From Prevotella sp. P5-108 (GTDB lineage: Bacteria > Bacteroidota > Bacteroidia > Bacteroidales > Bacteroidaceae), in contig CAVDHB010000048.1 of assembly GCA_963608705.1 (NCBI GenBank), forward strand, positions 3,664-67,663: a DNA stretch of 64,000 bases, in the 5' to 3' direction. The translations under genes were made by a program, and so were the position numbers. The notes below the pieces were generated by a model. The model saw only the letters and a program-made list of their open reading frames with translations. It was not told where the DNA came from and searched no databases. Shown in pieces: positions 7,794 to 34,073 of this stretch (the stretch's first letter is position 1; every line of letters starts with the position of its first letter).

Positions 7794-8000
7794 TTCTGTA
7801 TCTCTACATAAGAGATACAGAAATCGGCTGCAAATATATTAAAAATATTGCACATACAGTGAGTTGGGACGAAAAAAATAACTCACATTATCTTCCAAAA
7901 TTTATCGCTGTTTACTTTCTTTTACAGTTCGTGAGTCCCTTACTCGTACATTATCAATGAATTACATGGCATTCTGTATCTCTTATGTAGAGACGCGGAA
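7794..8000. promoter_or_regulatory. Putative invertible CPS promoter segment flanked by inverted recombination sites; -7 box TATATTTG on minus strand (7838-7831), OFF orientation
   Basis: Left site is 7794-7822, TTCTGTATCTCT-ACATA-AGAGATACAGAA. Right site is 7972-8000, TTCTGTATCTCT-TATGT-AGAGACGCGGAA. The spacers are reverse complements. The only TAnnTTTG match inside the segment is on the minus strand. Confidence 0.65.
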
Positions 8001-8256
8001 GAAACCGGGAAACATAACCCGATATGGCTTTCAAAAAGCAGAGCGTATGACACACAATTTGCTACTCACGGGCTTGTCCGCATCATGCATGCGGAAAGCT
8101 GAAAGACATAAAAGTATTGAAGATTAGTGGAAGTCAGTCTATTGGTTTTTCAATGCTGTGACACATCTCACACCCATGTAACTTGGAAAAGACGCTCTTT
8201 TCCGGGGAAGCCGGGATGTATTCTTCGCACAGCGCATTTTTCAAGTCGTTAACTTT

Positions 8257-10320: not shown

Positions 10321-10370
10321 GATACATGGCCAAGTATCTTAAGATACATCGCCAAGTATCCTAAGATACT
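10311..10370. repeat. Three tandem 22-bp units each containing the palindrome GTATC-N4-GATAC
   Basis: AGTATCCTAAGATACA (10311), AGTATCTTAAGATACA (10333), AGTATCCTAAGATACT (10355), with exact 22-bp phasing. The first copy overlaps the stop codon of the upxY-like gene. Confidence 0.85.
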
Positions 10371-10463
10371 TTGAAAAGTGACCCTAGACATAGAAAACAT
10401 GGAGGGGATTATTTGCAGATATGGGGATAAGTCCTTATCTTCGCAAAAAACAATCTTGACGGT

Positions 10464-18774: not shown

Positions 18775-18801
18775 TAATTTGTTTATTCAAATTATATTGT
18801 T

Positions 18802-20535
18802 ATGAATATCAAGCCTGCTGATAAAACAATAAAAGCTCTTCTAAAATCAGGCCGTAAATTTATGATACCACGATTTCAGAGAGATTACTCTTGGGAAAAG
18901 AAAAATTGTGAAGAGTTCCTTGAAGATATAATTAAGGGATTAATTTATAAAAACGGTAAGTTAGGAACTTCTTCATATTTTTTGGGAACAATGCTTTTCA
19001 TTGGTAACTTTGATGAGAAAAGTGATAAAGAAATTCAAATTGTAGACGGACAACAACGCATTACAACAATAACAATATTGTTTTCGGTTATTTCCGATAT
19101 TTTTAGAGAAAAGGGTGAAGAGAAATTAAGTGAATTGATTTTCAGCTATATAATGACAAGTGATGATGATGGGAATTCTGTCAGAATTATAAAAAGTGAA
19201 AGTAGTTACCCATATTTTGCTTTTTATATCCAAGATAGAGAAAAAACGCAAATGCCTGAACCATCGTCTGAAGAAGAATTATGTATTCAAAGTACGTATA
19301 AGTTGTTTAAAAACCGTTTGGATGAGAAAAACCTAAAATCCTTTTTGGAAAAGAACTGTGAGAACTTTGATGTTGGTGTTGGACTTATTGAAATACTAAA
19401 GGCTATAAGAGACCAAATTTTGAATTGTATATTTATTTCAATATCTACAGATGACAAATTACAGGCTTATAGAATTTTTGAGATTCTTAATGCAAAAGGT
19501 AAAAAACTCGCAGCAATAGATTTGATTAAAAATAGATTGTTTGAGAAACTTCCCCAAACAGAACCTGCCGATTTTGCGAAATGCAAATGGGATGAACTAA
19601 AAAGAATAATAAACGAGTGTGATGTGGCTTCCGTTGGGATAGGGACTTTTTACCGACATTTTTGGAATTCTTGTTACAAACAAACTGGGACAAATCAATT
19701 GTATGACAAATTCTTGTCAATGATTAATAAAAGTGATTATGAATCGTTCCTTAATTCTTTGGTTGTTAATGCAAAATATTATGTACAAATAATAAAGCCT
19801 TTAAGAGAAAATTACGAAAATAGGAAAGAGTATTTTTGGCTAGTACAAAGTTTTAAAGTCCTTTCTGATTACTTCGGAATTGCACAAGTTCGTGTCGTAT
19901 TGATGGCATTGTTATGGGCGAAAGACAACAACCGCATATTCACTGCAGATTTTAAGCAATCAATCTTGTTTTTAGAACATTTCCATTTCGCTTATACTGC
20001 TTTATTATCTGGCAAGGCAAATAAACTTGATGGTATTTATTCAAAATTCGCAATAGCTTTAAGGAAAAGTAACAGTAAAAATCAAAGTAAGCAGATAATA
20101 AAGACGAATCTTTATGACTGCTTGAAAGTATTGCTTCCAACTGAAGAACAGTTTACAGAAAAATTTTTATCTCTTAGTTATAGTAAAAAGTCTGCGCCAT
20201 CTAATATGAAGTGCAAATATGCACTTCTTAAATTGAACTGCTATTATCAAGGAAAGGAAATTTTTGAAGATGACTCTTCAATAGAGCACATCATCCCTGA
20301 GTGTGAAGAAAGTGATGCCAATAACATTGGCAATTTAATTATATTAGAACAAAAATTGAATACAGAAGCCGATAAAAAGGATTATTCTGAAAAACAGCTG
20401 ATATATAAAAAATCTAATTACAAATGGATTAGAAAATTTTCAGAAACGCATCCATCATGGATACAAGATATGATAAATGATAGGGCTAAAGAAATGGCGA
20501 CTTTATTTTACAATAAGATTATCGTCTTCAATTAA
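18802..20535 (+). CDS. DUF262/DUF1524 (GmrSD-like) putative type IV restriction/nuclease protein
   Basis: N-terminal FMIPRFQRDYSWEKKN and VDGQQRITT (DUF262/ParB-like). C-terminal SIEHIIPE...NIGNLIILEQKLNTEA (DUF1524 His-Me finger). Confidence 0.85.
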   Translation: MNIKPADKTIKALLKSGRKFMIPRFQRDYSWEKKNCEEFLEDIIKGLIYKNGKLGTSSYFLGTMLFIGNFDEKSDKEIQIVDGQQRITTITILFSVISDIFREKGEEKLSELIFSYIMTSDDDGNSVRIIKSESSYPYFAFYIQDREKTQMPEPSSEEELCIQSTYKLFKNRLDEKNLKSFLEKNCENFDVGVGLIEILKAIRDQILNCIFISISTDDKLQAYRIFEILNAKGKKLAAIDLIKNRLFEKLPQTEPADFAKCKWDELKRIINECDVASVGIGTFYRHFWNSCYKQTGTNQLYDKFLSMINKSDYESFLNSLVVNAKYYVQIIKPLRENYENRKEYFWLVQSFKVLSDYFGIAQVRVVLMALLWAKDNNRIFTADFKQSILFLEHFHFAYTALLSGKANKLDGIYSKFAIALRKSNSKNQSKQIIKTNLYDCLKVLLPTEEQFTEKFLSLSYSKKSAPSNMKCKYALLKLNCYYQGKEIFEDDSSIEHIIPECEESDANNIGNLIILEQKLNTEADKKDYSEKQLIYKKSNYKWIRKFSETHPSWIQDMINDRAKEMATLFYNKIIVFN

Positions 20536-20559
20536 TAAACAAATGAGTTCAATAAACAA

Positions 20560-21672
20560 ATGAAAATTGGAATACTCACCCTGCCGTTGCATACCAACTA
20601 CGGCGGGATACTTCAGGCGTATGCCCTTCAGACCGTACTTGAACGCATGGGCCATGAGGTGGTTGTGTTTGACACTCCAAAGGAATGGTGGCATCTGCCT
20701 TTGTGGAAAGCTCCGTTGGTTTATGGTAAACGCTTCCTGAAAAAATGCTTAATAGATAAAAGCACTGAGATATTTGTTGAACGAAAACAGACCAAGGAAT
20801 ATCCTATAGTCAGCCAATACACATCAGAATTTATAAAGAAGTACATTCATATCAAGGCTATAGTGGATTTCTCTGAACTGAAGGAAAATGATTATGATTG
20901 TATTGTGGTTGGCAGTGACCAAGTTTGGCGGCCCAAATATTTCCCTTCTGACATATCTGAGGCGTATCTGAAGTTCGCTGAAGATTGGAATATAAAGAGG
21001 ATAGCATATGCAGCCTCATTCGGGACGAATGAATGGGAATACACATCGGAACAGACGGCGGAATGCACAAAGTTAATAAAAATGTTCGATGGTGTATCCG
21101 TTCGAGAGGATTCTGCCGTTGGCTTGTGCCGTAAGTACTTCGGAATGGAGGTTAAACACGTATTAGACCCTACTATGCTATTGCGTAAAGAGGATTATGT
21201 AAGACTCTTTGAAAACGCCAACACACCGAAGAGCAAAGGAACACTGTTGTGCTATGTATTGGATGAAACTTCTGAAAAGATAGCATTGATTCAGAAAATT
21301 GCCGAAGAGCGAAACCTCATCCCTTTCCGTGTGAACTCAAAAGTGGAAGACCCTTCAGCCCCCTTAAATGAGCGGATACAGCCTCCCGTTGAGCAGTGGC
21401 TGAGGGGATTTTATGATGCGGAGTTCGTTGTGACCGACTCATTCCATGCCTGCGTGTTCTCGATTCTGTTTGGAAAACAGTTCTTGGTTATCGGCAACAA
21501 AGAAAGGGGACTTTCACGGTTTGGGTCTCTGTTGGAGATGTTGGGGTTGGAGGATAGAATGGTTACAAGAGAACATGAAAATCTGGAAGACATAGATTAT
21601 ACGAAAGTCTACGAACTGCTATCGAACAAAAGAAGATATTCTACAGACTTGTTGAATGAATTCAACAAGTAG
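20560..21672 (+). CDS. Polysaccharide pyruvyl transferase, copy 1
   Basis: KIGILTLPLHTNYGGILQAYALQ N-terminus and VVTDSFHACVFSILFGKQF motif. Confidence 0.85.
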   Translation: MKIGILTLPLHTNYGGILQAYALQTVLERMGHEVVVFDTPKEWWHLPLWKAPLVYGKRFLKKCLIDKSTEIFVERKQTKEYPIVSQYTSEFIKKYIHIKAIVDFSELKENDYDCIVVGSDQVWRPKYFPSDISEAYLKFAEDWNIKRIAYAASFGTNEWEYTSEQTAECTKLIKMFDGVSVREDSAVGLCRKYFGMEVKHVLDPTMLLRKEDYVRLFENANTPKSKGTLLCYVLDETSEKIALIQKIAEERNLIPFRVNSKVEDPSAPLNERIQPPVEQWLRGFYDAEFVVTDSFHACVFSILFGKQFLVIGNKERGLSRFGSLLEMLGLEDRMVTREHENLEDIDYTKVYELLSNKRRYSTDLLNEFNK

Positions 21673-22114
21673 TAAATCCTTAGGGCGTGAATTGAAAAAC
21701 TCCAAGTTGAGAATGGTATAAAGGTACTTTCAATTTGTAATACACTCTCGTTGACATTACTCGTAAATGGGCGTTATTCATACATACTTTCTATATTTTT
21801 CACGGTTTACAAGGCTCAAGCACACTTTCGTAAAGATGGTATTTACGAACCGTAACCACCATCTTGGAGCGTCAAAAATATGCGGTTTCATTGATACAAA
21901 CACCGCCTTTATTATATTGTTGTCATCCTGTGAATAATGGCATTCAGATGGTGAACCTTTCAATTCATAACTGAAAAGGCATGAACAGCGACCAGTGAAC
22001 CGTGTGAATGATTAAAAACGCAAAATATTTGTATAGCGTTTATACCTTCCAAGACACGTTACAACACCATAAAAGTGTGGCAAAATTTCAAGAATATAAT
22101 ATAGATATGACATT

Positions 22115-23086
22115 ATGGAAACAAATACAAAGATAAGCGTAATAGTCCCCATTTACAACGTGGAGAAATACCTCCATCGCTGTGTGGACAGTATACTTGC
22201 ACAAACATTCACCGACTTTGAAGTGCTTCTGATTGATGATGGCAGCGCAGATAGTTCCGGAAATATTTGTGATGAATATGCGGACAGAAACTATAGAATT
22301 AAAACAATTCATCAGAAAAACCAGGGAGTGACAGCAGCACGGTGGAATGGGGTAATAAACTCAAAAGGCCATTATATATGCTTTGTAGATGCAGATGATA
22401 CCTTGCCAGAAGATTCCTTAGGCACGCTATACAATATGGCAATATCTAAGAATATAGATATTCTTATCACCTCTGAATTATATGATAATAATGGTAATAT
22501 ACATGAGAACAAAATAGATTCTGATGGTTTCATGGGCAGTTATACATTTATTAAATGCCAACTAACGGGAAGCTTCATTTGGCTTGCACCCCATGGCAGG
22601 ATTTTCAAACGAGAGGTTCTTGTTCGTTCGCAGTTTAACAGAATCTCTCGTGATATAGTTCAGAATGAGGATATGATAATGAATATATTAGCATCAATGG
22701 AGAGTAAGCATATTTATGTATTGAGTAATTACTATTCTTATGTTTATCATTATACAGAATCAGGAGCGGGACATATCAATACAGAATGTCAATATTGGTG
22801 TATGCTTTATGATGTATTAACGTCCCTAATTGGGCAAAAGGATAATCGTATTTTGCACGGAATACAAAAAGAGCTACATTTATTTTTATTAGATCGAACA
22901 TATAAGAAGAAATGGTCAGGAAAAGGTATAAAATACAAAAGAGAATTGATAAATTATTTCTCTAAAATAACAGATCTGAAATTAGAAGATCGAAAAAGAG
23001 TTCTGATTTTAAGGTATCCATATATCTCATTTCCCTTGAAGTGCTTATTTTTTATTATGAAAAAATTTGAGTTATGTTTGAGATAA
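22115..23086 (+). CDS. Glycosyltransferase family 2
   Basis: ISVIVPIYNVEKYLHRCVDSILAQTFTDFEVLLIDDGSADSS and FVDADD. Confidence 0.9.
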   Translation: METNTKISVIVPIYNVEKYLHRCVDSILAQTFTDFEVLLIDDGSADSSGNICDEYADRNYRIKTIHQKNQGVTAARWNGVINSKGHYICFVDADDTLPEDSLGTLYNMAISKNIDILITSELYDNNGNIHENKIDSDGFMGSYTFIKCQLTGSFIWLAPHGRIFKREVLVRSQFNRISRDIVQNEDMIMNILASMESKHIYVLSNYYSYVYHYTESGAGHINTECQYWCMLYDVLTSLIGQKDNRILHGIQKELHLFLLDRTYKKKWSGKGIKYKRELINYFSKITDLKLEDRKRVLILRYPYISFPLKCLFFIMKKFELCLR

Positions 23087-24258
23087 AAATTGTATTCATA
23101 TCATTAAAACTTTTAGAGTTTCTTGCTTTTTGCATATCAGGCTTTTTATTGTCAAGAACAAAGAGAAAAGTCTCATATTGGAAAATTGCTTGTATTCCTA
23201 TTATCGCATTTACTGTAGTTGAAGGATTGAGATTTGGGAGATTCATAGATTGGAATTTATATTATTTTCGATACATAGAAATGGGAACTAATCCTTCAAA
23301 AGCTGATTATGAGCCATTCTTTGTTTTTATAAACTATATTATATATAAAGTAGGATTACCATATTGGTCTTTTATCTCAATTCAATGTTTTCTCCTTATA
23401 TTCTCGATATTGAAATTATGTGAGAACTTTAAACCTTATTTGAAATATATTCTGCCAATGACATTAGTTACTGTCTATTCAAATGAAATGTTTATTAGAT
23501 GGTATATGGGGTTTAGTTTTATTTTATTGTCACTATGTGCTATATTGAATAAGAAAATATTACAGTCATATATATATGCTTGTTTAGCTTGCCTTTGCCA
23601 TGTCGGTTTTGTTATATATATCCCCATTATTGTCTTATATAAATATATCAATGTTCATAGTTTAAACTCTAAAATATCTACAATTCTATTTCTGGTTGTA
23701 ACTTTTGCCATGGGATTGTCAGATTTACAATTTATTGTTTCAATCACTGATATGTTTTTGTCTTTTGGATTGGGATCTTTAGGAGGTGGAAAAGTTGGTA
23801 ACTACTTAAATGATACAGAAGCTTTAGTTTCTGGAGATTGGGGGACTGCAGGTGTTATGGGAAGAGACTTAAGTACAAATATAAAAATGGCTATTGCTTA
23901 CGTACCTGCAATATTATATGGTTCAAGGGTATTGGAACAATATAAATACGGGAAACTTCTTTATAATTTATTTGTTATTGGTGCAATTATTGGTCCGTTG
24001 TTCCTTCAAATAGAAATATTCAATAGAATAGCAGACAGCTTTATTTTCTTTTCGTCAATAATTTGTGGGGTAACATATTATTATTTCCTTAACTCCAAGG
24101 TTAAGAACAAGTTGTTACGCTATCTATTAATAACACTTTGTTTGGCATGCTTCATATATCCATATTTATATGATATTTTTAATCGGGCTAATGATAATTA
24201 CATGCTATTCATATGGGATGCAAACGGCAGAACTTATTTGCCATATTTAATGGAATAA
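23074..24258 (+). CDS. EpsG/Wzy-like polysaccharide polymerase (polytopic membrane protein)
   Basis: About 10 hydrophobic segments and aromatic-rich loops, in the position typical of a CPS polymerase. Confidence 0.7.
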   Translation: MFEIKIVFISLKLLEFLAFCISGFLLSRTKRKVSYWKIACIPIIAFTVVEGLRFGRFIDWNLYYFRYIEMGTNPSKADYEPFFVFINYIIYKVGLPYWSFISIQCFLLIFSILKLCENFKPYLKYILPMTLVTVYSNEMFIRWYMGFSFILLSLCAILNKKILQSYIYACLACLCHVGFVIYIPIIVLYKYINVHSLNSKISTILFLVVTFAMGLSDLQFIVSITDMFLSFGLGSLGGGKVGNYLNDTEALVSGDWGTAGVMGRDLSTNIKMAIAYVPAILYGSRVLEQYKYGKLLYNLFVIGAIIGPLFLQIEIFNRIADSFIFFSSIICGVTYYYFLNSKVKNKLLRYLLITLCLACFIYPYLYDIFNRANDNYMLFIWDANGRTYLPYLME

Positions 24259-24277
24259 TCTGATTTATATATCGAAT

Positions 24278-25252
24278 ATGAAAATTTCAGTCATAATGCC
24301 TGTTTATAATGCCGAAAGATTTTTAGCAGAGGCTATAGACAGCATTTTAAACCAAACTTACAAAGACTTTGAGTTTATCATCATCAATGATGGTAGTACG
24401 GACAGAAGTGAAGAAATTATTAAATCTTATCATGATGACCGTATAGTATATGTCAAGAATGGAAAGAACTTAAAGCTGATAAAAACTCTAAATAAGGGTA
24501 TTGACCTTGCAAGGGGAAAATTCATAGCTCGAATGGATGCCGATGACGTTTCTTTGCCAGACCGCTTTGAAAGACAGATGAAAGTCTTTGAAGAGCATCC
24601 TGAAATTGATTTTATCAATGGAAGGGCGTATAACATCAACGAAGCTGGTGAATCTATCGGTCAGGAATGGTATGGTCCAGTCCAGCCAGATACCATTAGG
24701 TACATAAATGTCTTTTGCTGTATTATTTGCCATCCAAGCGTAATGATTAAGGCATCTCTATTAAAAGCTTATAAATACAGCGACAATAAAATGGCTTTAC
24801 ATACGGAGGACTATGACTTATGGGCAAGACTTCTTATAGATAAACATTCATGCTATTCAATGAAAATTCCTGTTCTCAAATATAGAATTGTCAGTAATAG
24901 TATAGTTCACAAGTATACAAATGATATCATAGAACATTTGTATGTGAGTGTTCCTATGTATGTGGGAAAATATGGTGGATTCATATCCCCAAAAGACATA
25001 GAAACTCTAAATGGTATAAATAATACATTTAGCGGATTGAAGTCGTTACATAAGATGTTCAATGATTTTACATTTAATGTCTTGCAAAATGAAGACAACA
25101 AAATCATACATGAATTTACAAAATGGAGACTTCGGCGCGAATTACGAGTAATTAAAGCCATGCTACTACAGCGTGACTACAAAGAGTTTTACACTACGAT
25201 TTTTAAAATCGTAATACCGAATATCATTTCTTATGCAAGAGCACTAATTTAA
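24278..25252 (+). CDS. Glycosyltransferase family 2
   Basis: ISVIMPVYNAERFLAEAIDSILNQTYKDFEFIIINDGSTD and ARMDADD. Confidence 0.9.
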   Translation: MKISVIMPVYNAERFLAEAIDSILNQTYKDFEFIIINDGSTDRSEEIIKSYHDDRIVYVKNGKNLKLIKTLNKGIDLARGKFIARMDADDVSLPDRFERQMKVFEEHPEIDFINGRAYNINEAGESIGQEWYGPVQPDTIRYINVFCCIICHPSVMIKASLLKAYKYSDNKMALHTEDYDLWARLLIDKHSCYSMKIPVLKYRIVSNSIVHKYTNDIIEHLYVSVPMYVGKYGGFISPKDIETLNGINNTFSGLKSLHKMFNDFTFNVLQNEDNKIIHEFTKWRLRRELRVIKAMLLQRDYKEFYTTIFKIVIPNIISYARALI

Positions 25253-25260
25253 TAAAGAAC

Positions 25261-26367
25261 ATGAAAATACTAGAAATCAATCAGTGGCTTGCTTCTGGAG
25301 GGGGAGAACGTTTTATTGTAGATTTGAGCAACGAATTGGCGACAAGAAAGGGCTTTGAAGTCTACGTTTGTACATATATGGATGATAAAGACCATAACAA
25401 TGGTTTTTATAAATCACAGCTAAAAAAGAATGTACACTACATAAATTTAAAAGGCAAACAGAATCTGTTGTCAAAGATAAAGATGGTCTTTTCAGTCTTC
25501 TTCTTGATATGCAAAATAAGACCTGATGTCGTACATTGCCATTTAAGCGCATTCTATTTTGTCTTGATACCATCTATACTTTTCAGAAATATAAAATTTG
25601 TAAACACAATACATAATCTTGCATCTAAGGATATAAAGCCTGGAGTTGAGAAAATACTCAAGAAAATCGCATATAGATATTTGATATGCCCTGTCACCAT
25701 ATCTCCTATGTGTTATGACTCTTTCTCAGAATATATGGGATTCAATACCTCCACATTGATTGACAATGGTTGTCGTGAAATAAAAGTAACCTCTCGATTT
25801 GATGAAGTTCATAGGGAGGTTGAATCTTATAAAAAAACTGATAAAACAAAAGTATTGATAAATGTGGCACGTGTCCATCCTCAAAAGAATCAGAAATTAT
25901 TGATTGAAAGCTTTAATAAATTGATTGATAAAGGATATGATGCCATTCTGCTAATTTTGGGTTCTTTGAATGATTATCCTATGATCGTTAATGAACTGAG
26001 AACTATAAATCGTACCGACAGGGTTCATTTCTTAGGTGCAAGGGATAATGTATCAGATTACCTGTTTAACAGTGATGCTTTTTGTCTATCCTCATCGTAT
26101 GAAGGTGCTCCAATCTCATTACTCGAAGCTGGATTTGCTGGATGTTATCCCTTGTGCACACCTGTGGGAGGATGTAAAGATACTATAGTGGATAAAAACT
26201 GGGGATTACTTTCAAATGATTTGGGCACAGATTCTTACACTAAGATATTAATAGATTATATGAATAATCCACATCCCTCACGAGAAGATATTTCGAACCT
26301 TTATCACGGTAAGTATACAATGAGAGAGTGTGCAAATAAATATATTAATCTTTTTATACATAAATGA
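25261..26367 (+). CDS. Glycosyltransferase family 4 (GT1-fold)
   Basis: C-terminal SSSYEGAPISLLEAGFAGCYPLCTPVGG (E-x7-E region). Confidence 0.85.
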   Translation: MKILEINQWLASGGGERFIVDLSNELATRKGFEVYVCTYMDDKDHNNGFYKSQLKKNVHYINLKGKQNLLSKIKMVFSVFFLICKIRPDVVHCHLSAFYFVLIPSILFRNIKFVNTIHNLASKDIKPGVEKILKKIAYRYLICPVTISPMCYDSFSEYMGFNTSTLIDNGCREIKVTSRFDEVHREVESYKKTDKTKVLINVARVHPQKNQKLLIESFNKLIDKGYDAILLILGSLNDYPMIVNELRTINRTDRVHFLGARDNVSDYLFNSDAFCLSSSYEGAPISLLEAGFAGCYPLCTPVGGCKDTIVDKNWGLLSNDLGTDSYTKILIDYMNNPHPSREDISNLYHGKYTMRECANKYINLFIHK

Positions 26368-26915
26368 TAACAACCAAAAAAGAACTGGGAGAATACATCA
26401 GATGCGACCGTTATGCACAGGGTATGCAGCATCCGTTAATGGCTAAATTCACTTATGGTGAGAACGCCATGATAAGACGTTATATGACTAATCTTCGCAA
26501 GACAGAATACTGGAGCACTAAACATTGTCTTTGGGGACGATTGATGTATGGCTTCCACTTCTTAAAGCATAGACGTATGTCACTTAAATATGGCATGTAC
26601 ATAGGCTTGAACGCAGTTGACAAGGGGTTCTTCATCGTCCATCCAGGTTTTATACGAATAGATTCATGGGTTCATATAGGCAAGAACTGTACCGTGTTGC
26701 CTATGGTTCTCTTTGGCAGGGCGCATCCGATAAACGGAACAGAAATATTCGTTGGTGACAATTGTTATGTGGGAACAGGTGCCACAGTCCTCGGGCCTGT
26801 AAAGATAGGAAACAATGTGACTATAGCCGCAGGTGCAGTAGTGACAAAAGATGTGCCAGACAACGTGGTAGTTGCTGGTGTGCCTGCTAAGATAGTGAAA
26901 TATAAAGAAGAGTAA
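26364..26915 (+). CDS. Hexapeptide-repeat O-acetyltransferase (serine acetyltransferase-like)
   Basis: Left-handed beta-helix repeats VGDNCYVGTGATVLGPVKIGNNVTIAAGAVVTKDVPDNVVVAGVPAKIV. ATGA overlap with the upstream GT. Confidence 0.85.
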   Translation: MITTKKELGEYIRCDRYAQGMQHPLMAKFTYGENAMIRRYMTNLRKTEYWSTKHCLWGRLMYGFHFLKHRRMSLKYGMYIGLNAVDKGFFIVHPGFIRIDSWVHIGKNCTVLPMVLFGRAHPINGTEIFVGDNCYVGTGATVLGPVKIGNNVTIAAGAVVTKDVPDNVVVAGVPAKIVKYKEE

Positions 26916-26959
26916 TAATAGATTGGAAAATCATTATTCAAAATGATAACAAAACAAAT

Positions 26960-27796
26960 ATGGCAAAAGAGAAGATAAAAAGGAAAAACGTTGAGATGGC
27001 ATTTATTAATGTCGTTCTTTATCCAACAGAAAAGCAAAAACCTGAAGAGTATGTAAAATTGCTCTATTCCATTATGGCTGGTCGTGTGATGATAAATAGT
27101 CGAAATTCATACCGTTCAACATTGCTACGAGCTTTTGATTTTGAGGGTGATTATTATCACGGTTACTTTTGTAATGCCATATTTCTAAAGGATGATTTCT
27201 GGGCGTTAAATATTAGAGATAATCTGCTTGAAGAGGCAGTTATTGATCCTAATAAGGTATTAGATCCCAAGTATATGGAATTTTGGTTTTATCCTAAATA
27301 TCATAGGTTTGCTGTTCGTAAATCGGACGTTACGAAAATTGTAAAATTCTTGATTGGCAGTTTTAAATTCAAGTTGGGAGATGAAGATAGTTTTGCTGTC
27401 AATATAGAAAAGGATAAGAATATAATTGAAAGAATAATCAATTCAGAAGGCATAGTAAAGATAAAGATTTCCATTAGATATTCCAATAATGACAATTGTG
27501 AGGACTGGGAAGATTTGGATTCAGTATTACGTAATTCGGATACGAATAAGGCAGAATTATCTTTGCAATCAAGCAATGCTAAGCCAATACAGGCTAAAAA
27601 GAATTGGTTGTTGAGAGCCTTTTTGGTTCTAAGTAAATCTTATGGTACAGCTACAGCCAAAATTATCAACGAAAATGGATACATAGAAGATGTAGATACG
27701 AAAAGGTATCCAAATACACGTACAGTAGATTTCAATCAAAACCCAGAAAAAGACATAAGAGATTGCATTGAGGGTATCGCGCAAAATAAAGTATAG
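26960..27796 (+). CDS. DUF4747-like cytoplasmic protein (no glycan-enzyme motif)
   Basis: AFINVVLYPTEKQKPEEYVKLLYSI N-terminus, L-PKYMEFWFYPKYHRFAV, and IKISIRYSNNDNCEDWED. These resemble my recollection of the DUF4747 layout, but this is unverified. No TM or signal peptide. Confidence 0.5.
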   Translation: MAKEKIKRKNVEMAFINVVLYPTEKQKPEEYVKLLYSIMAGRVMINSRNSYRSTLLRAFDFEGDYYHGYFCNAIFLKDDFWALNIRDNLLEEAVIDPNKVLDPKYMEFWFYPKYHRFAVRKSDVTKIVKFLIGSFKFKLGDEDSFAVNIEKDKNIIERIINSEGIVKIKISIRYSNNDNCEDWEDLDSVLRNSDTNKAELSLQSSNAKPIQAKKNWLLRAFLVLSKSYGTATAKIINENGYIEDVDTKRYPNTRTVDFNQNPEKDIRDCIEGIAQNKV

Positions 27797-27798
27797 TT

Positions 27799-28380
27799 AT
27801 GGGGATAAGGAAACCACCTACATTGCAATCAAAAGGATGGAGTGGCTTTAATTTTGTCTACTTTAAGTTTTGCGGAAAACAGTTTAGGCATTCACTTCGG
27901 TGGGCAAGTTGTGCTGTTGTTCTTGCTTTTATTGTATCTGTGCTGTCTCCAAAACCGTATTATGATTTATTAGTTGTTTTGACTAGTATCGGTCTGAAGG
28001 TTGCACCCCCACTTTTAGGCTTTACTCTTTCCGGGTATGCATTGGTTATAGGCGTAAACGATGCCAATGTTTCAGAACGATTGAAGAGATACAAAACAAA
28101 AACAGGTATTACAATGTATCAGCAGCTTTATACTACCTTCATAGCCATGCTTGGATCAATATTTCTACTGCTGGTAGAAAGTGTCATATTGCACTACGCT
28201 TTGGAATCAGGTATCATGTTGTCCAATTCTATTGTAGTTGGTATTGTTAATATTAGTATCTTTTTAATATATTCGTTCACTATGTTTTATGCCTTGTTTG
28301 CAGTCAAAGATTTACTGTCAAATTTATTTAGTCTAGGACAGACAATTAATAACATTCATCAAGAGACACATAAACAATAA
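27799..28380 (+). CDS. Small 4-TM membrane protein (193 aa), translationally coupled to the upstream gene
   Basis: The start is 2 nt after the upstream stop. There are four hydrophobic helices (AVVLAFIVSVL; LLVVLTSIGLKVAPPLLGFTLSGYALVIGV; FIAMLGSIFLLLVESVILHYAL; VVGIVNISIFLIYSFTMFYALFAV). Confidence 0.7.
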   Translation: MGIRKPPTLQSKGWSGFNFVYFKFCGKQFRHSLRWASCAVVLAFIVSVLSPKPYYDLLVVLTSIGLKVAPPLLGFTLSGYALVIGVNDANVSERLKRYKTKTGITMYQQLYTTFIAMLGSIFLLLVESVILHYALESGIMLSNSIVVGIVNISIFLIYSFTMFYALFAVKDLLSNLFSLGQTINNIHQETHKQ

Positions 28381-28385
28381 GAAAA

Positions 28386-28559
28386 ATGAATATACTTTTC
28401 TTGATAAAAGGTTGGGGCGTTGGAGGACTGGAGGTCGTAATGTTCTTGTTAGCAAATAAGTTTATTTTTTTGCTTATGTCACAAACTCAAATATGCCATT
28501 TACGTGTAATAACAAGCATGTTTATGAAATATAAATATGACATTTACGAGGTTCAGTGA
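28386..28559 (+). pseudogene. Truncated N-terminal stub of a GT4 glycosyltransferase
   Basis: MNILFLIKGWGVGGLEVVMFLLANKF is a typical GT4 N-terminus. Homology is lost after a T7 run (28450s) and the frame stops at 57 codons. Confidence 0.6.
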
Positions 28560-28621
28560 TATGTTTATTAAATTCAATGACTATAGCAAACAAGCTAAAA
28601 CATTAGATAAATATTGATTTT

Positions 28622-29614
28622 ATGAAAAGAGTTTTTTCTTTTAATTCCGAACTTTATAAAGTCACAGGGGTGCAAAAGGTACTTCTGGATGTTCATCATG
28701 CGGTCATGGAAAATTACGATGCCAAGATTGTTGGTACTGTGTCGTATGACAAGCTGCATAAAGACCAAGGCATAAAACGAGAGGAATATATAAAGTTTAG
28801 GAATCCGTTTATGTTCCGTAATTCCATAGTCATCTTACATGAAAGAAAATTTCTGGCTCTATTCTGGTTGTTGAATCATTTATTTTTCCAAAATATCAAA
28901 TTGGTGTATATTCACCATAATGTGTTCAATAACCATCGCAGAATGTCGATAATGCCCAAAAATGTGGTGGCAATTTCTGATGAAGGTGTAAGAAATCTTC
29001 ATGAGTTCTTTGGCGTACCAATGAAGAATATCCATAAAATATATAATTGCGTGAAAGACATTCACCCACATTCACATAAAATATATGATGGCGGTGTTGT
29101 GAAAATTCTTTATCCAGCGCGAATTAATGAACAGAAAAGACAACTTGAAATAGTAAAGTTCTTGAAGGGGAAATTGAACGATAAAATAAAGATACTTTTT
29201 GCTGGTACAGGGCCGTATTTTGAATCTTTGAAAGAGTCTGTGCAAGGTGATGAGCATTTTGATTGCCTTGGCTATCGTTCAGATATATACAATTTACTTT
29301 CGGAGTGCGATTATATGTTGCTGTTTTCAGGCCATGAGGGATTGTCAATTTCCCTGATAGAAGCGACTATGATGTGTACACCCATTGTTTGTAATAATGT
29401 GGGAGGAAACTCTGAGATTGTAAAAAATGGCGTAAATGGGACAGTGCTTGATGTGAATGATTGGAAGGGTCTCATAGAGACGATGAACAATTTAGCAAAT
29501 ATTCCGGGGACTAAGTATAATGAAATGTCAATGAATAGTAGGAGAATATATGAAAGCAACTTCACTTTTGAAAAATTCAAAGCAAACTATCTCAATTTAT
29601 TAAGTAAGCTATGA
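28622..29614 (+). CDS. Glycosyltransferase family 4
   Basis: GHEGLSISLIEATMMCTPIVCNNVGGNSEIV. Confidence 0.85.
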   Translation: MKRVFSFNSELYKVTGVQKVLLDVHHAVMENYDAKIVGTVSYDKLHKDQGIKREEYIKFRNPFMFRNSIVILHERKFLALFWLLNHLFFQNIKLVYIHHNVFNNHRRMSIMPKNVVAISDEGVRNLHEFFGVPMKNIHKIYNCVKDIHPHSHKIYDGGVVKILYPARINEQKRQLEIVKFLKGKLNDKIKILFAGTGPYFESLKESVQGDEHFDCLGYRSDIYNLLSECDYMLLFSGHEGLSISLIEATMMCTPIVCNNVGGNSEIVKNGVNGTVLDVNDWKGLIETMNNLANIPGTKYNEMSMNSRRIYESNFTFEKFKANYLNLLSKL

Positions 29615-30417
29615 TGAAAAGAATTATACCATTCTTCGTCTTTTTGTTCTCACTAAGCGTTAGTGGATTTGGACAGGATATTTTTGAAGAAAAGCCAGCT
29701 TTTGAGGAACATTTCACAAGCAAGGAAATCAATAAGAGCATTTGGGGATTCAGCAAAGAGCAGTCTGGTTCTCTTCCATTCTATAATGGGGATAATAAGC
29801 GTAATGTCAAAGTAAAAAAAGGAAAACTTTATCTAACCCTAAGGAAGAATAGTCCTGATGAAGGGGAAAAATCGTATACTTCTGGAAGACTTTATACGAA
29901 GAAGTTCTATCGATATGGAAAGTTCGAGATACGAGCGAAAATGCCAAGTATAAACGGTATATGGGCGGCTATTTGGTTCAGAGCTAATTGGTCCAGAACC
30001 AAGGATGGTCCTGCTTGTCGTGGAGAAGTAGACTTGATGGAATGTTTTGTAAAGAACGGAAACTACAAGAAATGGAATGTGAACGTTCATTTATGGGGAA
30101 ATATAGAAGGAAAAACTAATAGTCATAGTCAGTATCCTTATTCGGTAATGTGCGATATTTCCAAGTATCATGTTTATACACTGGAAATCGCACCAAATAA
30201 AGTCGTCTTTAAAATTGAAGGGAATATTGTACGTACTGTGAGGAGAGGTGATATACCAGAATGGCCATTCGGAAATAATGAGTATCAGCTACTATTGGCT
30301 TTGTCCTATGGTGGTTGGGATAAAAATAAAATAACAAATGATGCACGGCTTCCTCAGACAATGAAGGTTGACTATGTGAAATATTACAAGTTGAAAGGAG
30401 AATACGAAAATGATTGA
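29611..30417 (+). CDS. Secreted glycoside hydrolase family 16
   Basis: Signal peptide MMKRIIPFFVFLFSLSVSGFG. GRLYTKKFYRYGKFEIRAKMP..GIWAAIWF, and GEVDLMEC matching the GH16 ExDxxE catalytic motif. Confidence 0.8.
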   Translation: MMKRIIPFFVFLFSLSVSGFGQDIFEEKPAFEEHFTSKEINKSIWGFSKEQSGSLPFYNGDNKRNVKVKKGKLYLTLRKNSPDEGEKSYTSGRLYTKKFYRYGKFEIRAKMPSINGIWAAIWFRANWSRTKDGPACRGEVDLMECFVKNGNYKKWNVNVHLWGNIEGKTNSHSQYPYSVMCDISKYHVYTLEIAPNKVVFKIEGNIVRTVRRGDIPEWPFGNNEYQLLLALSYGGWDKNKITNDARLPQTMKVDYVKYYKLKGEYEND

Positions 30418-31594
30418 ACTTGCCTCGCATGAAACTTGTACAGGATGTACAGCCTGTATGAACAGTTGTAAGCATGGCGCAATAGAAATGAAGCCAGACA
30501 ATGAAGGTTTCCTTTTTCCCAGTATAGATACAGCGAAATGTATCGAATGTGGGTTGTGCCAAAAGCGTTGTCCGGTTCTTCAGTCCTCAGAAAGTGGGAA
30601 TTTTGACAAGCCTAAGGCTTTTGCTTTATACAGTGAGGAATACAGGAGAGTAAGTAGTTCTGGCGGAGCGTTCTCTGTATTTGCCAGATGGACTTTTGCC
30701 AAGAATGGTGTGGTATATGGAGCAGCTTTCGATGAGAATCTGTTTTGTCGACACATAAAGGCGAATACGATGGATGAACTCTCCCCAATAAGAGGTAGTA
30801 AGTATGTGCAAAGTAATATTGGAAATGTATTTGGAGAAATAAGAGATGCACTTAGGCAAGGAACACAAGTCCTGTTTACAGGCACTCCCTGTCAAGTGGC
30901 AGGTTTAAAAGAGTTCCTGCATAAATCTTACGACAATCTCTTAACATTGGATCTTACTTGTCATGGTGTTCCGTCTAACTCAGTCTTTCAGTCTTATATT
31001 GAAAGATTATCGACCCGATTCACTGGAAAAATATCATTTTTTGAATTTCGTCGGAGAGATGGATGGGGATTTGCCCCGTCTATATCTTTTGGGGGTAAAT
31101 TGCAACCAATATATGATGTGGACAATCTGTATATGTGTGCTTTTGACCGTGCCGCTTTGTTTAGAAAATCATGTTATGCTTGTCCTTATGCAAAATTACC
31201 ACGAGTTGGGGATTGCACTATTGCTGATTTTTGGGGTATCGGTCGGTATGGAAAACCATTTAAGCATAATCTTCTCAAAGGCGTTTCGCTTGTTCTTGCT
31301 AATAACGAAAAAGGTTTAGCAGCGGTGAATGCTTTGCAAGACTCTTTTATTGAAGAAAGAGATTTGCATGAAGCTTTAATAGAAAATTATAATATAACCC
31401 ATCCTTCTGCTATTTACAAGGATAGGGATGCCATTATATCTGCTTTTCTTGATAAGAGATTAAGTCTAAATGACATTGATGAGAAGTTTCATTTAGTAGA
31501 TAAAAGTCTAAAAGGCAGAATTAAGAAATATGCGACAAAGTACCATGTGTTTGATTTCGTAAAAGCCATATACAATAAATACAAAACATTATGA
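30410..31594 (+). CDS. 4Fe-4S / FrhB-like protein, copy 2
   Basis: CTGCTACMNSCKHGA and CIECGLCQKRCP, followed by an FrhB-type domain colinear with copy 1. Confidence 0.85.
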   Translation: MIELASHETCTGCTACMNSCKHGAIEMKPDNEGFLFPSIDTAKCIECGLCQKRCPVLQSSESGNFDKPKAFALYSEEYRRVSSSGGAFSVFARWTFAKNGVVYGAAFDENLFCRHIKANTMDELSPIRGSKYVQSNIGNVFGEIRDALRQGTQVLFTGTPCQVAGLKEFLHKSYDNLLTLDLTCHGVPSNSVFQSYIERLSTRFTGKISFFEFRRRDGWGFAPSISFGGKLQPIYDVDNLYMCAFDRAALFRKSCYACPYAKLPRVGDCTIADFWGIGRYGKPFKHNLLKGVSLVLANNEKGLAAVNALQDSFIEERDLHEALIENYNITHPSAIYKDRDAIISAFLDKRLSLNDIDEKFHLVDKSLKGRIKKYATKYHVFDFVKAIYNKYKTL

Positions 31595-32667
31595 GAATAG
31601 GAATACTATCCATGCAGGAAGTGAAGAATTATGGATCATTTCTTCAGGCATACTCATTGAAAAGGAATATTGAAGCACTGGGACACAAATGCGAATTTAT
31701 TAATATTATTCCTGGAGAACAGCTCGGAGATTACAAGATTAGCAAGTTCCATAAACTGCGTTTGTTGATTGAAAGGTTGTGGGGATGGGATTTTGCGAAA
31801 CGTTTCAAGTACATCTATCAGTTTCAAAGTAGGTTCTCGAAAGAGTTCTTGCCTGAATTGGGAGTAAGGCCTGGTGCTACTATTGGACATTTCGATACCG
31901 TTGTCATAGGCAGTGACGAGGTTTTCAATTGTGCCCAAAAGACATGGTTCGGATTCTCAAAACAATTGTTTGGTGAGGGGCTGGATGCCAATAAAGTAAT
32001 TACTTACGCTGCATCCTTTGGGGCGACGACTGTTTCAAAGTTGGAAAAATTGGGCATCAAGGACACGGTGGCTCAATTATTAAAGAAGCTGGATGTTATT
32101 TCCGTAAGAGATAAAAATAGTGCGGAAGTCGTTGAAATGTTGACAGGTGGCGTTCCAAGTAGAAACGTTGACCCTGTCTTTATTTATGACTATACCAAGC
32201 ACATGCCGACTTCGGTAGACTTGAAAGACTATATGATAGTTTACACTTATCCTGGACGTATTACAGACAAGAATGAAATTAAAGCCATTCGTGCATACGC
32301 TAAAAGCAAAGGTTTGCTATTGGTAAGTATTGGTCATTACTTTTCTTGGTGTGACAAGACGATTGTCCCTCATCCGTTTGAAGTACTCGCTTATTTTAAA
32401 AATGCTGAATGTATCGTAACAGATACATTCCATGGTTCTGTATTCTCTATCAAGTTCAATAAGCAATTCTGCACGATTGTGCGTGGCATGAACAGTAATA
32501 AACTTACTTATCTGTTGGAGCAGTTCGGCTTGTCTGGACGCATAATTAATGATGTTAACGAATTGCCTTCAATTATGGAAAGAGATATAGACTATTCTCT
32601 CGTGAATACGAAAATAGCTCATGAGAAAGAGCGTTCCATCGCTTACCTGAAAGAAAACCTATCATAA
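31591..32667 (+). CDS. Polysaccharide pyruvyl transferase, copy 2
   Basis: RIGILSMQEVKNYGSFLQAYSL and IVTDTFHGSVFSIKFNKQF. ATGA overlap with FrhB-like copy 2. Confidence 0.85.
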   Translation: MRIGILSMQEVKNYGSFLQAYSLKRNIEALGHKCEFINIIPGEQLGDYKISKFHKLRLLIERLWGWDFAKRFKYIYQFQSRFSKEFLPELGVRPGATIGHFDTVVIGSDEVFNCAQKTWFGFSKQLFGEGLDANKVITYAASFGATTVSKLEKLGIKDTVAQLLKKLDVISVRDKNSAEVVEMLTGGVPSRNVDPVFIYDYTKHMPTSVDLKDYMIVYTYPGRITDKNEIKAIRAYAKSKGLLLVSIGHYFSWCDKTIVPHPFEVLAYFKNAECIVTDTFHGSVFSIKFNKQFCTIVRGMNSNKLTYLLEQFGLSGRIINDVNELPSIMERDIDYSLVNTKIAHEKERSIAYLKENLS

Positions 32668-32675
32668 AAGTTAAT

Positions 32676-33389
32676 ATGAAATCCGTTTTAATAGATAAAA
32701 TAGTAATAACGGAAAAATTCTCCATAAATCAAATATTTAAATACCCGGAGAAAGTATATACATTCCTAAACCCTGTCTCTTATCTTACAGCACTCGAACA
32801 CAAAGATTTGTTTGGATTGTTTGACGGTATTTTCGCAGATGGTTCTATTCTTGTCAAAGCCATAAAGTTGCTTTATGGTGAGGACGTGACGAGACGGAGC
32901 TTTGACATGACTTCGCTTGCTCCTGAACTGCTGTCGTATGCAGAGAAGGGCGGAAAGACTATTTACATAGTGGCTTCCAAACAAGAGCAGGTGGAAAAAG
33001 CCGTGGAGATATTCAAGGAACGTTATCCCCACTTGAAGTTTGCTGGTTATAGAAATGGCTATTTCTCTTCTGAAGCAGAAAAAGACGAGGAAACACGTCA
33101 TATTGTCGCAGTTAATCCCGACTTTCTTATAGTAGGTATGGGTGCGTTGGTACAGGAGCAGTTTCTGCTGAAAGTGAAGGAAGCAGGCTACAAGGGCATA
33201 GGCTTCACATGTGGCGGATTCATCCATCAGACTGCCAAGAACGAGATAGACTATTATCCGGTATGGGTGGATAAAACTAATCTTCGTTTTGCTTATCGTA
33301 TATGGAAGGAACCACATACACGCAAGCGTTATATGCAAGCGGCTCTTCTCTTTCCAGCACGTTTTATTTGGGAAAGATTTTTCGGATAG
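32676..33389 (+). CDS. WecB/TagA/CpsF-family glycosyltransferase (GT26)
   Basis: FLNPVSYL, FADGS, IVGMGALVQEQF, GFTCGGFIHQ. Last gene of the CPS operon. Confidence 0.8.
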   Translation: MKSVLIDKIVITEKFSINQIFKYPEKVYTFLNPVSYLTALEHKDLFGLFDGIFADGSILVKAIKLLYGEDVTRRSFDMTSLAPELLSYAEKGGKTIYIVASKQEQVEKAVEIFKERYPHLKFAGYRNGYFSSEAEKDEETRHIVAVNPDFLIVGMGALVQEQFLLKVKEAGYKGIGFTCGGFIHQTAKNEIDYYPVWVDKTNLRFAYRIWKEPHTRKRYMQAALLFPARFIWERFFG

Positions 33390-34073
33390 TCTTGTATAAC
33401 CAATGGATTGGCGCAAAGACTACCGATATGGGCGTGAGGATGATAAGCAGGAGCGTAGGGATTATATTGCCCAATGCTCGCAATATGCGTTCTTTCATGT
33501 GTGCAAAATTACTACAGCTATTTTACAATAACGAATCTTTTTGCAACTATTCGAATTAGGGCTTAAAAATGTATACCTTCACGGCTGAATCTTATGTGCA
33601 GCAGCGAAGATTTGGAAAGAATCTATTATTCCTAATTGGGTTATCATGCCAGTGGTAAGAATAGCTATGCTGATGGAGTCGCCTATGGGTATCTGTCCTG
33701 CAAGGGTGAAGAAACTCCAGATTTCCACGAACATCTGTGGCGAGAAGCTGAAGAACTGTGGCTATCAGTTTAAATGGAGTTTGAGGAGGCTTTGGAGGAA
33801 TGGTTTGAGGATAATGACAGAAAGTGGTTGAAATGAAGTCCTTTAGCGTTAAAATAATCCAATAAGTTTGGTGGCGTAAGAGGAAAAATATATCTTCGCA
33901 GTGCGAAATAGAAGAGAATTTGTTATGTTAGGAATTAATGCACCCAAGGTTATAGCCAAAGGTGAATATGCGCAAGCTGTTCGCAAGGCTGCTCTTGCGT
34001 CTGTCGGTTTAAAAGTAAAGAAGACAGAAGTGAGAAAAACGTCAAAATATCCATATAAGTTCGAATGGGTTTT

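Follow-up and report, generated by a model that had tools for sequence, protein, structure and literature searches.

The DNA analyzed here is a 64,000-nucleotide stretch of Prevotella sp. P5-108 (contig CAVDHB010000048.1, positions 3,664 to 67,663 of the forward strand), referred to as the window in the following. In a capsule operon of this window, two adjacent genes reside between those for an acetyltransferase and a glycosyltransferase of family 4 (GT4). The first, termed rexA-like, encodes a soluble protein of the DUF4747 family and the second, termed rexB-like by analogy, a small protein with four transmembrane (TM) helices, an arrangement that invites comparison with the phage-exclusion system RexAB of phage lambda (Table 1). 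An earlier note, made from the letters of this DNA alone, had described a 278-aa soluble protein and a 193-aa four-TM protein at this position, and the open reading frames (ORFs), hydropathy and helices predicted by AlphaFold (AF2) all agree with that description. The note had also placed the start of the second gene 2 nt behind the stop of the first, as is the case: the TAG at 27794-27796 is followed by "tt" and by the ATG of the second gene at 27799.

Both proteins have many intact homologues at 38-68% identity and the pair therefore consists of real genes, not of chance ORFs. Starts, motifs and spacing are conserved across about 24 clusters for the soluble protein and about 25 for its partner which, in combination with the intact reading frames, argues that purifying selection has acted on both over a long time. 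The soluble protein is basic (isoelectric point (pI) 8.5) and contains no hydrophobic segment. The stretches AFINVVLYP, FWFYPKYHRF and SNNDNCEDWED are all present in it, and most of their residues fall into columns that are invariant or nearly so among 20 homologues. A contrast in GC content between the pair (about 37%) and the preceding acetyltransferase gene (about 52%), as put forward in the earlier note, was not borne out. The rexA-like and rexB-like genes have 33.1 and 35.6% GC, the acetyltransferase gene has 42.9% (its final 216 nt 45.8%), the adjoining GT genes have 33-35% and the entire locus from 18800 to 33400 has 35.3%, with window flanks at 48-49%. Because the whole capsule locus is AT-rich, the pair is not compositionally distinct from its surroundings, and composition was rejected as a sign of foreign origin.

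The resemblance to DUF4747 stated in the earlier note proved to be well founded. The soluble protein matches the Pfam family DUF4747 (PF15931) with 69.9 bits (E 3e-19) against a gathering threshold of 27 and covers profile positions 4-254 of 257. The same annotation is precomputed on all 24 close homologues, and the protein is a genuine member of the family. It also matches PHROG 10040 (E 5.6e-13), a family without assigned function, and has no match in NCBIfam. An AF2 model built on 20 homologues reached a pLDDT of 81.5 and a pTM of 0.81. When this model was compared with the PDB by Foldseek, lambda RexA ranked first (8TWQ_B, E 5.9e-6, probability 1.0, about 265 aligned columns), followed by the second RexA chain (8TWQ_A, E 3.6e-4). 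No other PDB fold was found at E ≤ 1e-3, and the next distinct structure is that of RdgC (2owy, E 0.19), which has been described as the structural homologue of RexA in the RexA structure paper. The predicted model is thus of the RexA type, i.e., RdgC-like with two domains. Five uncharacterised tailed-phage proteins in BFVD, a collection of predicted viral structures, match it as well (E 6e-17 to 9e-7). A phmmer search of PDB sequences with the soluble protein yielded nothing, and its relationship with RexA is suggested by the predicted fold together with published HHpred statements. The predicted RexA/RdgC fold and the pI of 8.5 are also hints that the protein may bind DNA.

For the partner, hydropathy indicates four hydrophobic segments (approximately residues 32-50, 57-86, 113-131 and 139-157), and the AF2 model (pLDDT 80, pTM 0.72) consists of four long helices (26-49, 54-84, 106-136 and 144-192). 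Lysine and arginine residues are concentrated at two places, the N-terminal tail and the 85-105 loop. By the positive-inside rule, this suggests that both termini and the conserved central loop are cytoplasmic, corresponding to an N-in/C-in topology. Neither Pfam nor NCBIfam nor PADLOC offers a family for this protein. A phmmer search of 1.84 billion representatives retrieved 133 partner clusters at E ≤ 1e-3, with full-length alignments and lengths of about 180-250 aa; judged from these sequences, the family is real and unnamed. It is held together by a near-invariant core comprising P70, G74-F75 (in PPLLGF), G79-Y80, Q108, F114, N151 and N175/F177 that is kept down to about 20% identity, and the helices as well as the cytoplasmic loop are strongly conserved. 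A weak fold hit (TM-scores 0.54/0.60) points to the uncultured siphovirus ctylc9, which is also the source of one of the RexA-like hits in BFVD.

The earlier note had asked whether the two genes travel together. In the close loci, the gene following that for the DUF4747 protein encodes a partner homologue every time (E 1e-62 to 1e-78), and a hidden Markov model of the partner family detects the partner even beside DUF4747 genes whose products are only 26-31% identical to the window protein (loci L022, L025 and L026). A partner gene is adjacent in every readable locus, in capsule loci and in phages alike, and lies downstream on the same strand in all except L026. There, the DUF4747 gene (7956-8822, plus strand) and the partner gene (8822-9517, minus strand) are convergent, tail to tail, and a tyrosine integrase gene (9782-10999) directly follows the pair; it is the sole locus of this kind. 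The gap between the genes amounts to 1 nt in L002 and L029, 2 nt in L006 and L012 and 17 nt in L015, while the genes overlap in L028 and L022. In L023 and L024 both genes are degraded together. As a reverse test, IMG/VR was scanned with a degenerate DNA motif derived from the partner protein. Twelve contigs were returned, nine of which carry true partner genes, and in all eight partner contigs with readable upstream DNA a DUF4747-like ORF lies directly upstream on the same strand, abutting or overlapping, with 93-213 bits against PF15931. The DUF4747 gene and that for the four-TM partner are one unit. In the window, this unit shows the layout of RexAB-type systems, a small four-TM partner encoded next to the soluble protein on the same strand.

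The edges of this unit were located by comparing window positions 25000-31000 with 18 related loci in blastn. In all 18, homology sets in at 26953-26993, and it stops at 28362 except for L017 and L018, where it extends to 28438, i.e., about 50 nt into a GT4 remnant that follows the rexB-like gene. The limits of homology match the ends of the two genes, which therefore form a discrete cassette of 1.4 kb. No integrase or transposase gene is present at the cassette in the window. The TAnnTTTG motif of the Bacteroides type is absent from 26801-26960, and scans for sigma-70 promoters and terminators around the cassette returned sites at chance level. As the cassette is co-oriented with the capsule genes, it is probably transcribed along with them. 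A 16-nt AT-rich direct repeat (88%) at 26896-26911 and 28525-28540, the copies being 1629 nt apart, brackets cassette and remnant; it could be a microhomology junction or a product of chance.

The remnant had been regarded in the earlier note as a dead GT4 stub, lost after a run of seven T, and as a scar left by foreign DNA displacing part of the locus. Its GT4 nature is confirmed, as its first 28 residues share 54% identity with the N-terminus of the GT4 protein that follows, and is fused to, the partner in L017 and L018. The T7 run does exist (28465-28471), but no frame carries GT4 onward beyond it. A simple frameshift of the downstream gene for the 330-aa GT4 protein was rejected, since that gene has a GT4 N-terminus of its own (KRVFSFNS...TGVQKVLLD). 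The stretch 28386-28559 is a truncated GT4 remnant of recombination and not the N-terminus of the downstream GT4. Behind it, an AT-rich tandem duplication of about 44 nt (28487-28575) is apparent from direct repeats spaced 43-44 nt within 28487-28573. In L017 (10843-12609) and L018 (4244-6010), both of the Segatella copri type, the partner gene lacks a stop codon and continues in frame into a full GT4 gene. The resulting ORF of 588 aa is identical in two independent assemblies, and an internal ATG (MNKNENRKKILFL) could start GT4 separately. The corresponding protein cluster contains WP_233904168.1, annotated as "DUF4747 family protein [Segatella copri]". In L021 (9933-11513), a TAG interrupts the partner gene in frame; here, too, the gene downstream is in frame with the C-terminal part of the partner. 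Judging from these sequences, the simplest history is that the window cassette came from an L017-like locus with the right junction inside GT4. The scar proposed earlier is thus indeed a trace of recombination, but the stub probably arrived along with the cassette instead of being what is left of a displaced resident gene. In a look-up of the flanking proteins, aimed at finding this locus in a form lacking the cassette, the exact acetyltransferase and 330-aa GT4 proteins were found only on the window's own contig.

Table 1. Coordinates of the gene pair and of further features of the capsule locus in the window
Feature	Position	Strand	Remarks
GmrSD-family (DUF262/DUF1524) type IV restriction-like gene	18802-20535	+	30.7% GC; identified with Pfam and PADLOC
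Hexapeptide-repeat acetyltransferase gene	26364-26915	+	Upstream of the cassette; preceded by a GT4 gene
Spacer, 44 nt	26916-26959	+	From acetyltransferase stop to cassette; left homology boundary at about 26953-26993
rexA-like gene, soluble DUF4747 protein, 278 aa	26960-27796	+	Putatively the sensor in the cytoplasm or the part that binds DNA
Stop-start junction TAG tt ATG	27794-27801	+	Tight coupling of the rexA-like and rexB-like genes
rexB-like (analogous) gene, 193 aa, four TM helices	27799-28380	+	Putative membrane effector, unnamed family
Orphan GT4 remnant, 57 codons	28386-28559	+	Only about the first 28 codons GT4-like, followed by AT-rich filler
GT4 gene, 330 aa	28622-29614		Downstream of cassette and remnant; followed by a GH16 gene

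The close clade of the soluble protein comprises about 24 clusters at 52% identity or above. A profile search of a 5.8-billion protein set, within the limit imposed by its word index, added one fragment and no intermediates, and a scan of reference genomes returned only four loci, none of which was from the window's own genome. The clade is found in about ten arrangements in Bacteroidales, each of them within a polysaccharide locus or at its margin and co-oriented with it. In the window and in L012-14 the cassette follows an acetyltransferase gene, in L002-5 and L015 a bSEFIR-type TIR gene and in L017/18 a pyruvyl transferase gene. It is situated between DUF3990 and DegT genes in L006-9, after rml-type genes at the 3' end in L029-32, beside putAbiC and Fic genes in L019/20 and upstream of the capsular polysaccharide (CPS) genes in L028, there in the company of a CAP12-type TIR gene and a PDC-S06 ATPase gene. 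PADLOC assigned many neighbors in the related capsule loci to established or candidate defense proteins, namely bSEFIR (1e-50), ThsB (3e-49), PDC-S06 (1e-270), PDC-M29A (2e-49), HEC-04 (1e-34) and a DpdB-like family (3e-14). Among them, L002-L009, L015, L019, L028 and L029-32 carry genes for bSEFIR, ThsB-type TIR, CAP12-type TIR and PDC-S06 (AAA_13) proteins; AAA_15/21 ATPases (PDC-M29A, HEC-04), a DndB/DpdB-like gene, putAbiC and Fic occur in the same cassette-bearing loci, as do genes of the toxin-antitoxin type (YafQ/ParE, Gp49/HTH_3 and DUF2442/DUF4160). All of these neighbors are co-oriented with the glycan genes, except for the DUF2442/DUF4160 pair beside L029-32.

Carriage by a phage or prophage was observed neither for the window locus nor for the close clade; more distant pairs are present on 10 IMG/VR viral contigs. 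All seven viral contigs that we examined carry Mu-like or temperate-phage genes. L025 is Mu-like (Portal_Mu, Mu F, S78 (prohead) protease, reverse transcriptase and D12 methylase), L026 features the integrase adjoining the pair, a primase and a tape-measure protein, and on other viral contigs genes for Mu Gam, an anti-repressor, a late activator, SSB or terminase stand beside the pair. These contigs span 36-65% GC and have no glycan genes nearby. In L022, a tyrosine integrase gene lies 4.5 kb away and capsule genes are lacking. On the viral contig L042, a gene for a Mu Gam-like protein (9867-10448) is located directly upstream of the pair (10550-11943). Strain-specific loci of Salmonella Welikade contain a Gam gene, a DUF4747 gene of 894 bp and an adjacent 606-bp hypothetical gene (PMC11181664), and the occurrence of Gam beside the pair in both cases suggests that the latter is common cargo of Mu-like transposable phages. 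The pair is mobile as a unit between capsule loci and phages. The earlier note had stated that a pair found only in CPS loci, always linked to the same GT genes, would point to a role in glycan export or modification. The first part holds for the close clade. The second does not: neighbors vary among loci and homology stops at the cassette edges, the fusion of partner and GT4 in L017 and L018 being the exception. The varied positions and neighbors, together with the distant pairs in phages, argue against a dedicated glycan role.

The earlier note had taken the system to be undescribed, a view that has to be abandoned. According to published work, RexA, Sbash gp30, CarolAnn gp44 and Butters gp30 match DUF4747 by HHpred, each has a four-TM partner and each protects lysogens against other phages. 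Discussion of DUF4747 proteins with a four-TM partner as Rex-like goes back to 2019, and a "DUF4747/CarolAnn prophage system" is listed among immune operons; such "DUF4747/CarolAnn" operons occur downstream of genes for the immune regulators CapK/CapS. According to a 2026 paper, no more than five Rex-like systems have been described, all prophage-encoded and none from Bacteroidota. As a DUF4747 protein combined with a four-TM protein is the published RexAB/Sbash/CarolAnn architecture, the Prevotella pair is a further example of it. The logic of abortive infection by a sensor and a membrane effector, which the earlier note had suggested, is the one assigned in the literature to this architecture (lambda RexAB, Sbash, CarolAnn and the Pseudomonas putida system RexABpp) and by analogy may well apply here.

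With lambda RexAB, the window pair shares a soluble protein of about 279 aa whose gene is closely followed by that for a small four-TM protein, and RexA is the sole significant PDB fold match. In both cases the genes are accessory, non-essential cargo. The two systems differ in that there is no detectable sequence similarity, the window partner has 193 aa compared to 144 aa for RexB and belongs to a different family, and the lambda pair lies downstream of the cI repressor gene in a prophage, whereas the window pair resides in a capsule operon. CarolAnn gp44/gp43 from a Gordonia phage and Sbash gp30/gp31 from a mycobacteriophage likewise consist of a DUF4747-linked cytoplasmic protein and a four-TM partner, defense against heterotypic phages requires both of them and the system is regarded as an immune operon. 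Their hosts are Actinobacteria, however, and CarolAnn gp44 as well as Sbash gp30 comprise 370-372 aa and are weak DUF4747 matches by HHpred, while the window protein is a solid member of that family; hhalign found no similarity between the CarolAnn and window families, single-sequence templates having been used. RexABpp of P. putida prophage P1 (PP_5643/PP_5644) is comparable by its published description: over-production of RexA causes growth arrest and membrane permeability, both dependent on RexB, and the A:B ratio matters. That pair is prophage-borne and located near a CI-like repressor gene, unlike the window pair in its capsule operon. Kiwa is also a two-gene defense system made up of a small multi-TM protein (KwaA, four TM helices) and a soluble DUF protein (KwaB, DUF4868). 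Here, the gene order is reversed, the families differ and the window proteins match nothing at E ≤ 1 in PADLOC-DB v2, which presumably includes models for KwaA and KwaB.

Taken together, the pair in our opinion probably constitutes a two-component phage-exclusion (abortive-infection) module of the RexAB type that was captured, as an apparently promoter-less 1.4-kb cassette, in a capsule operon of a Segatella-like member of the Prevotellaceae. Computed here are the family assignment, the fold, the conservation of the partner, mobility, carriage by phages and the defense-related neighbors; sensing, interaction of the A and B components and membrane damage are transferred from the known systems by analogy. 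On this basis, the soluble protein, probably a DNA-binding dimer, would sense a phage protein or a phage DNA-protein intermediate of replication or recombination and would then engage or activate the membrane partner. The latter may oligomerize and depolarize or permeabilize the membrane, such that growth is arrested and the infection aborted. Coupling of the genes over a distance of 2 nt would fix the stoichiometry of A and B, to which such systems are sensitive.

Several observations weigh against such a module. On the side of the soluble protein, the global TM-score of the model against RexA is only 0.25 with a root-mean-square deviation of 15 Å, and the match therefore rests on the local 3Di alignment and probably on a different orientation of the domains. 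Since RexA is described as a hinged protein that changes conformation, this is a plausible reason for the low global score despite a full-length local alignment. Lambda RexA and RexB are assigned to Pfam families of their own (PF15969, 1e-97, and PF15968, 8.5e-92, respectively), RexA is thus not a DUF4747 protein, and neither of the window proteins matches either family at E ≤ 1. CarolAnn gp44 has no match at all in our Pfam scan, and comparison of the soluble family with RexA and CarolAnn gp44 by hhalign resulted in probabilities below 1%, a weak negative because single-sequence templates were used. On the side of the partner, Foldseek retrieved no significant fold match for the model, with no hit in BFVD at E ≤ 1e-3. 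Alignment of the partner family (124 sequences) with RexB and CarolAnn gp43 by hhalign, again with single-sequence templates, gave no signal; the published partners from P. putida and actinophages are also devoid of detectable homology to RexB. The PADLOC search proposed in the earlier note failed to support a defense assignment, as the v2 models detect neither protein. The close clade has been seen only in capsule loci, and tblastn with the soluble protein against 50,697 GenBank phage records and 72,556 PLSDB plasmids returned nothing at E ≤ 1. The published work that we found includes no experimental test of a bona fide Pfam-DUF4747 pair. Phage Butters, with a cytosolic effector restrained by the membrane protein, shows that Rex-like pairs can also operate in reversed roles. 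Finally, the in-frame fusion of partner and GT4 could hint at a function related to glycans.

The last point leads to the possibility that the pair serves the capsule, e.g., as a membrane accessory with an adaptor in the cytoplasm that takes part in the modification or flipping of glycans or in the control of chain length, similar to phage-borne modules for serotype conversion, in which small four-TM proteins such as GtrA occur. All ten contexts of the close clade, in or at the edge of polysaccharide loci and co-oriented, would be in agreement with such a role, and so would the in-frame continuation of the partner into GT4 in L017 and L018 (two assemblies), the similar situation in L021 and the GT4 stub retained in the window. 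Nevertheless, we consider it very unlikely. The cassette is found beside unrelated genes (acetyltransferase, DegT, TIR proteins, rml, pyruvyl transferase) with homology ending at its edges, and the other inserts in the same loci are defense genes. As had been noted earlier for GT and acyltransferase motifs in the soluble protein, no GT, acyltransferase, Wzx/Wzy/Wzz or GtrA family is matched by either protein in Pfam even at E ≤ 1, nor is any glycan-pathway family in NCBIfam. Furthermore, the predicted fold of the soluble protein is of the RexA/RdgC type, and the phage-borne pairs are located near integrase, Gam, anti-repressor and morphogenesis genes instead of glycan genes.

In Bacteroidales, capsule and glycan loci have been documented as insertion hotspots for cargo such as antibiotic-resistance genes (PMC8748976). 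The cassette might accordingly be selfish, an addiction-type combination of a toxin-like membrane protein with the protein controlling it, or else a hitch-hiker in decay. In either case it would persist because capsule loci are hotspots of recombination, and would be devoid of an adaptive anti-phage role in this host. Degraded copies (L023/L024), the in-frame TAG in L021, the GT4 stub in the window and the toxin-antitoxin genes near several of the loci (YafQ/ParE, Gp49/HTH_3 and DUF2442/DUF4160) fit this picture, as does the published toxicity of mis-activated RexB-type proteins. The sustained purifying selection evident from both intact and conserved reading frames renders it unlikely, and addiction and defense are not mutually exclusive for abortive-infection modules. 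It is also conceivable that the main role of the soluble protein is that of a DNA-binding regulator similar to RexA/RdgC, for instance in recombination or in the lysis-lysogeny switch of a resident prophage, and that the membrane protein merely sequesters or tunes it without damaging the membrane. Non-specific DNA binding is known for RexA and its homologues in actinophages, the lambda switch is biased by RexA without a need for RexB, the cytosolic Butters protein provides a precedent for an effector restrained at the membrane, and both the pI of 8.5 and the rank of RdgC right after the two RexA chains would suit a regulator. We assign very little probability to this explanation, as the window cassette resides in a capsule operon with neither a prophage nor a repressor gene beside it, and both the strict co-inheritance with the four-TM partner and the high degree to which the helices and cytoplasmic loop of the latter are conserved speak against a mere tethering role of the membrane protein. 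A RexAB-type exclusion module therefore remains the explanation that we prefer.

The capsule locus of the window harbors further genes worth mentioning. The GmrSD-family gene (Pfam GmrSD_N 1.6e-37 and GmrSD_C 1.1e-13; PADLOC HEC-06 6e-74 and also Orf5, SspE-like and mREase_IV) is co-oriented within the locus and situated between an FrhB/Fer4 gene (17470-18717) and a PS_pyruv_trans gene (20560-21672). In a second copy of this FrhB/Fer4 and PS_pyruv_trans combination, the genes overlap by 4 nt (30410-31594/31591-32667). The GmrSD gene looks like a second defense insertion in the locus. Near the 5' end, the plus strand encodes a protein with AAA-ATPase_like (PF09820) and PDDEXK_9 nuclease-superfamily domains (10464-12035). 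Its gene precedes most others of the locus and possibly represents a further one of the conflict type. The gene with which the locus begins (8257-10320, plus strand, 51% GC) specifies 687 aa, and the N-terminal 65 residues of the product are a weak match to the NGN domain of NusG, at 22.4 bits with a cutoff of 22.2. This protein greatly exceeds a typical UpxY antiterminator in length, and its remainder is without a Pfam match; in L015, a gene for a 216-aa NusG protein is followed by one for a 709-aa protein without family. About 260 nt upstream of the first gene there is a pair of inverted repeats (7794-7822 and 7972-8000; 29 nt, 90% complementary, 149 nt apart), each arm of which is palindromic. 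Between the arms, the TAnnTTTG (-7) motif occurs just once, on the minus strand (7831-7838). Judged from sequence, the repeats may delimit an invertible capsule promoter in the OFF orientation. The invertase site of the B. fragilis type, ARACGTWCGT, is absent near the locus. Glycan loci of Bacteroidales with invertible promoters carry inserted cargo and are hotspots for insertion (PMC8748976). In those cases, foreign genes that landed co-oriented in a glycan or capsule operon are expressed from the operon promoter, a precedent for the co-oriented insertions in the window; the differences are that the published cargo consists of resistance genes on integrative and conjugative elements, whereas defense cassettes are involved here, and that an invertible promoter is only suggested for the window.

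The more original aspect of our findings lies in this context, namely in defense cassettes that are co-oriented within capsule operons and whose own promoter signals are at chance level. The presence of the cassette together with recognized defense genes in capsule operons of gut Prevotella/Segatella-type bacteria may outweigh the pair itself in importance. We tentatively raise the possibility, which we regard as less than even, that capsule operons of Prevotellaceae and other Bacteroidales act as defense islands: promoter-less, co-oriented cassettes, i.e., the Rex-like pair and GmrSD in the window and bSEFIR, ThsB-type TIR, PDC-S06 and AAA_15/21 proteins elsewhere, would be expressed only with that particular capsule, and each capsule, possibly phase-variable, would bring its own immune repertoire. 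Perhaps such a repertoire is matched to the phages that use the capsule as receptor. The fusions of partner and GT4 could even indicate that the membrane effector is physically coupled to the machinery assembling the capsule. In a non-exhaustive search of the literature, we found no description of defense genes in Bacteroidales capsule loci.

For the family as such, a solid Pfam DUF4747 protein is now tied to lambda RexA at the level of the predicted fold. The obligatory four-TM partner family of DUF4747, with its 133 representative clusters and missing from PADLOC v2, provides a new model for defense-annotation tools. To our knowledge, the way in which RexA triggers RexB has been an unresolved question for about 70 years, and a broad and diverse set of A/B pairs is now at hand for co-variation and structural work. 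If expression of the cassette is indeed coupled to that of the capsule, capsule switching would be linked to intracellular immunity, which would bear on phage-host dynamics in the gut and on phage therapy.

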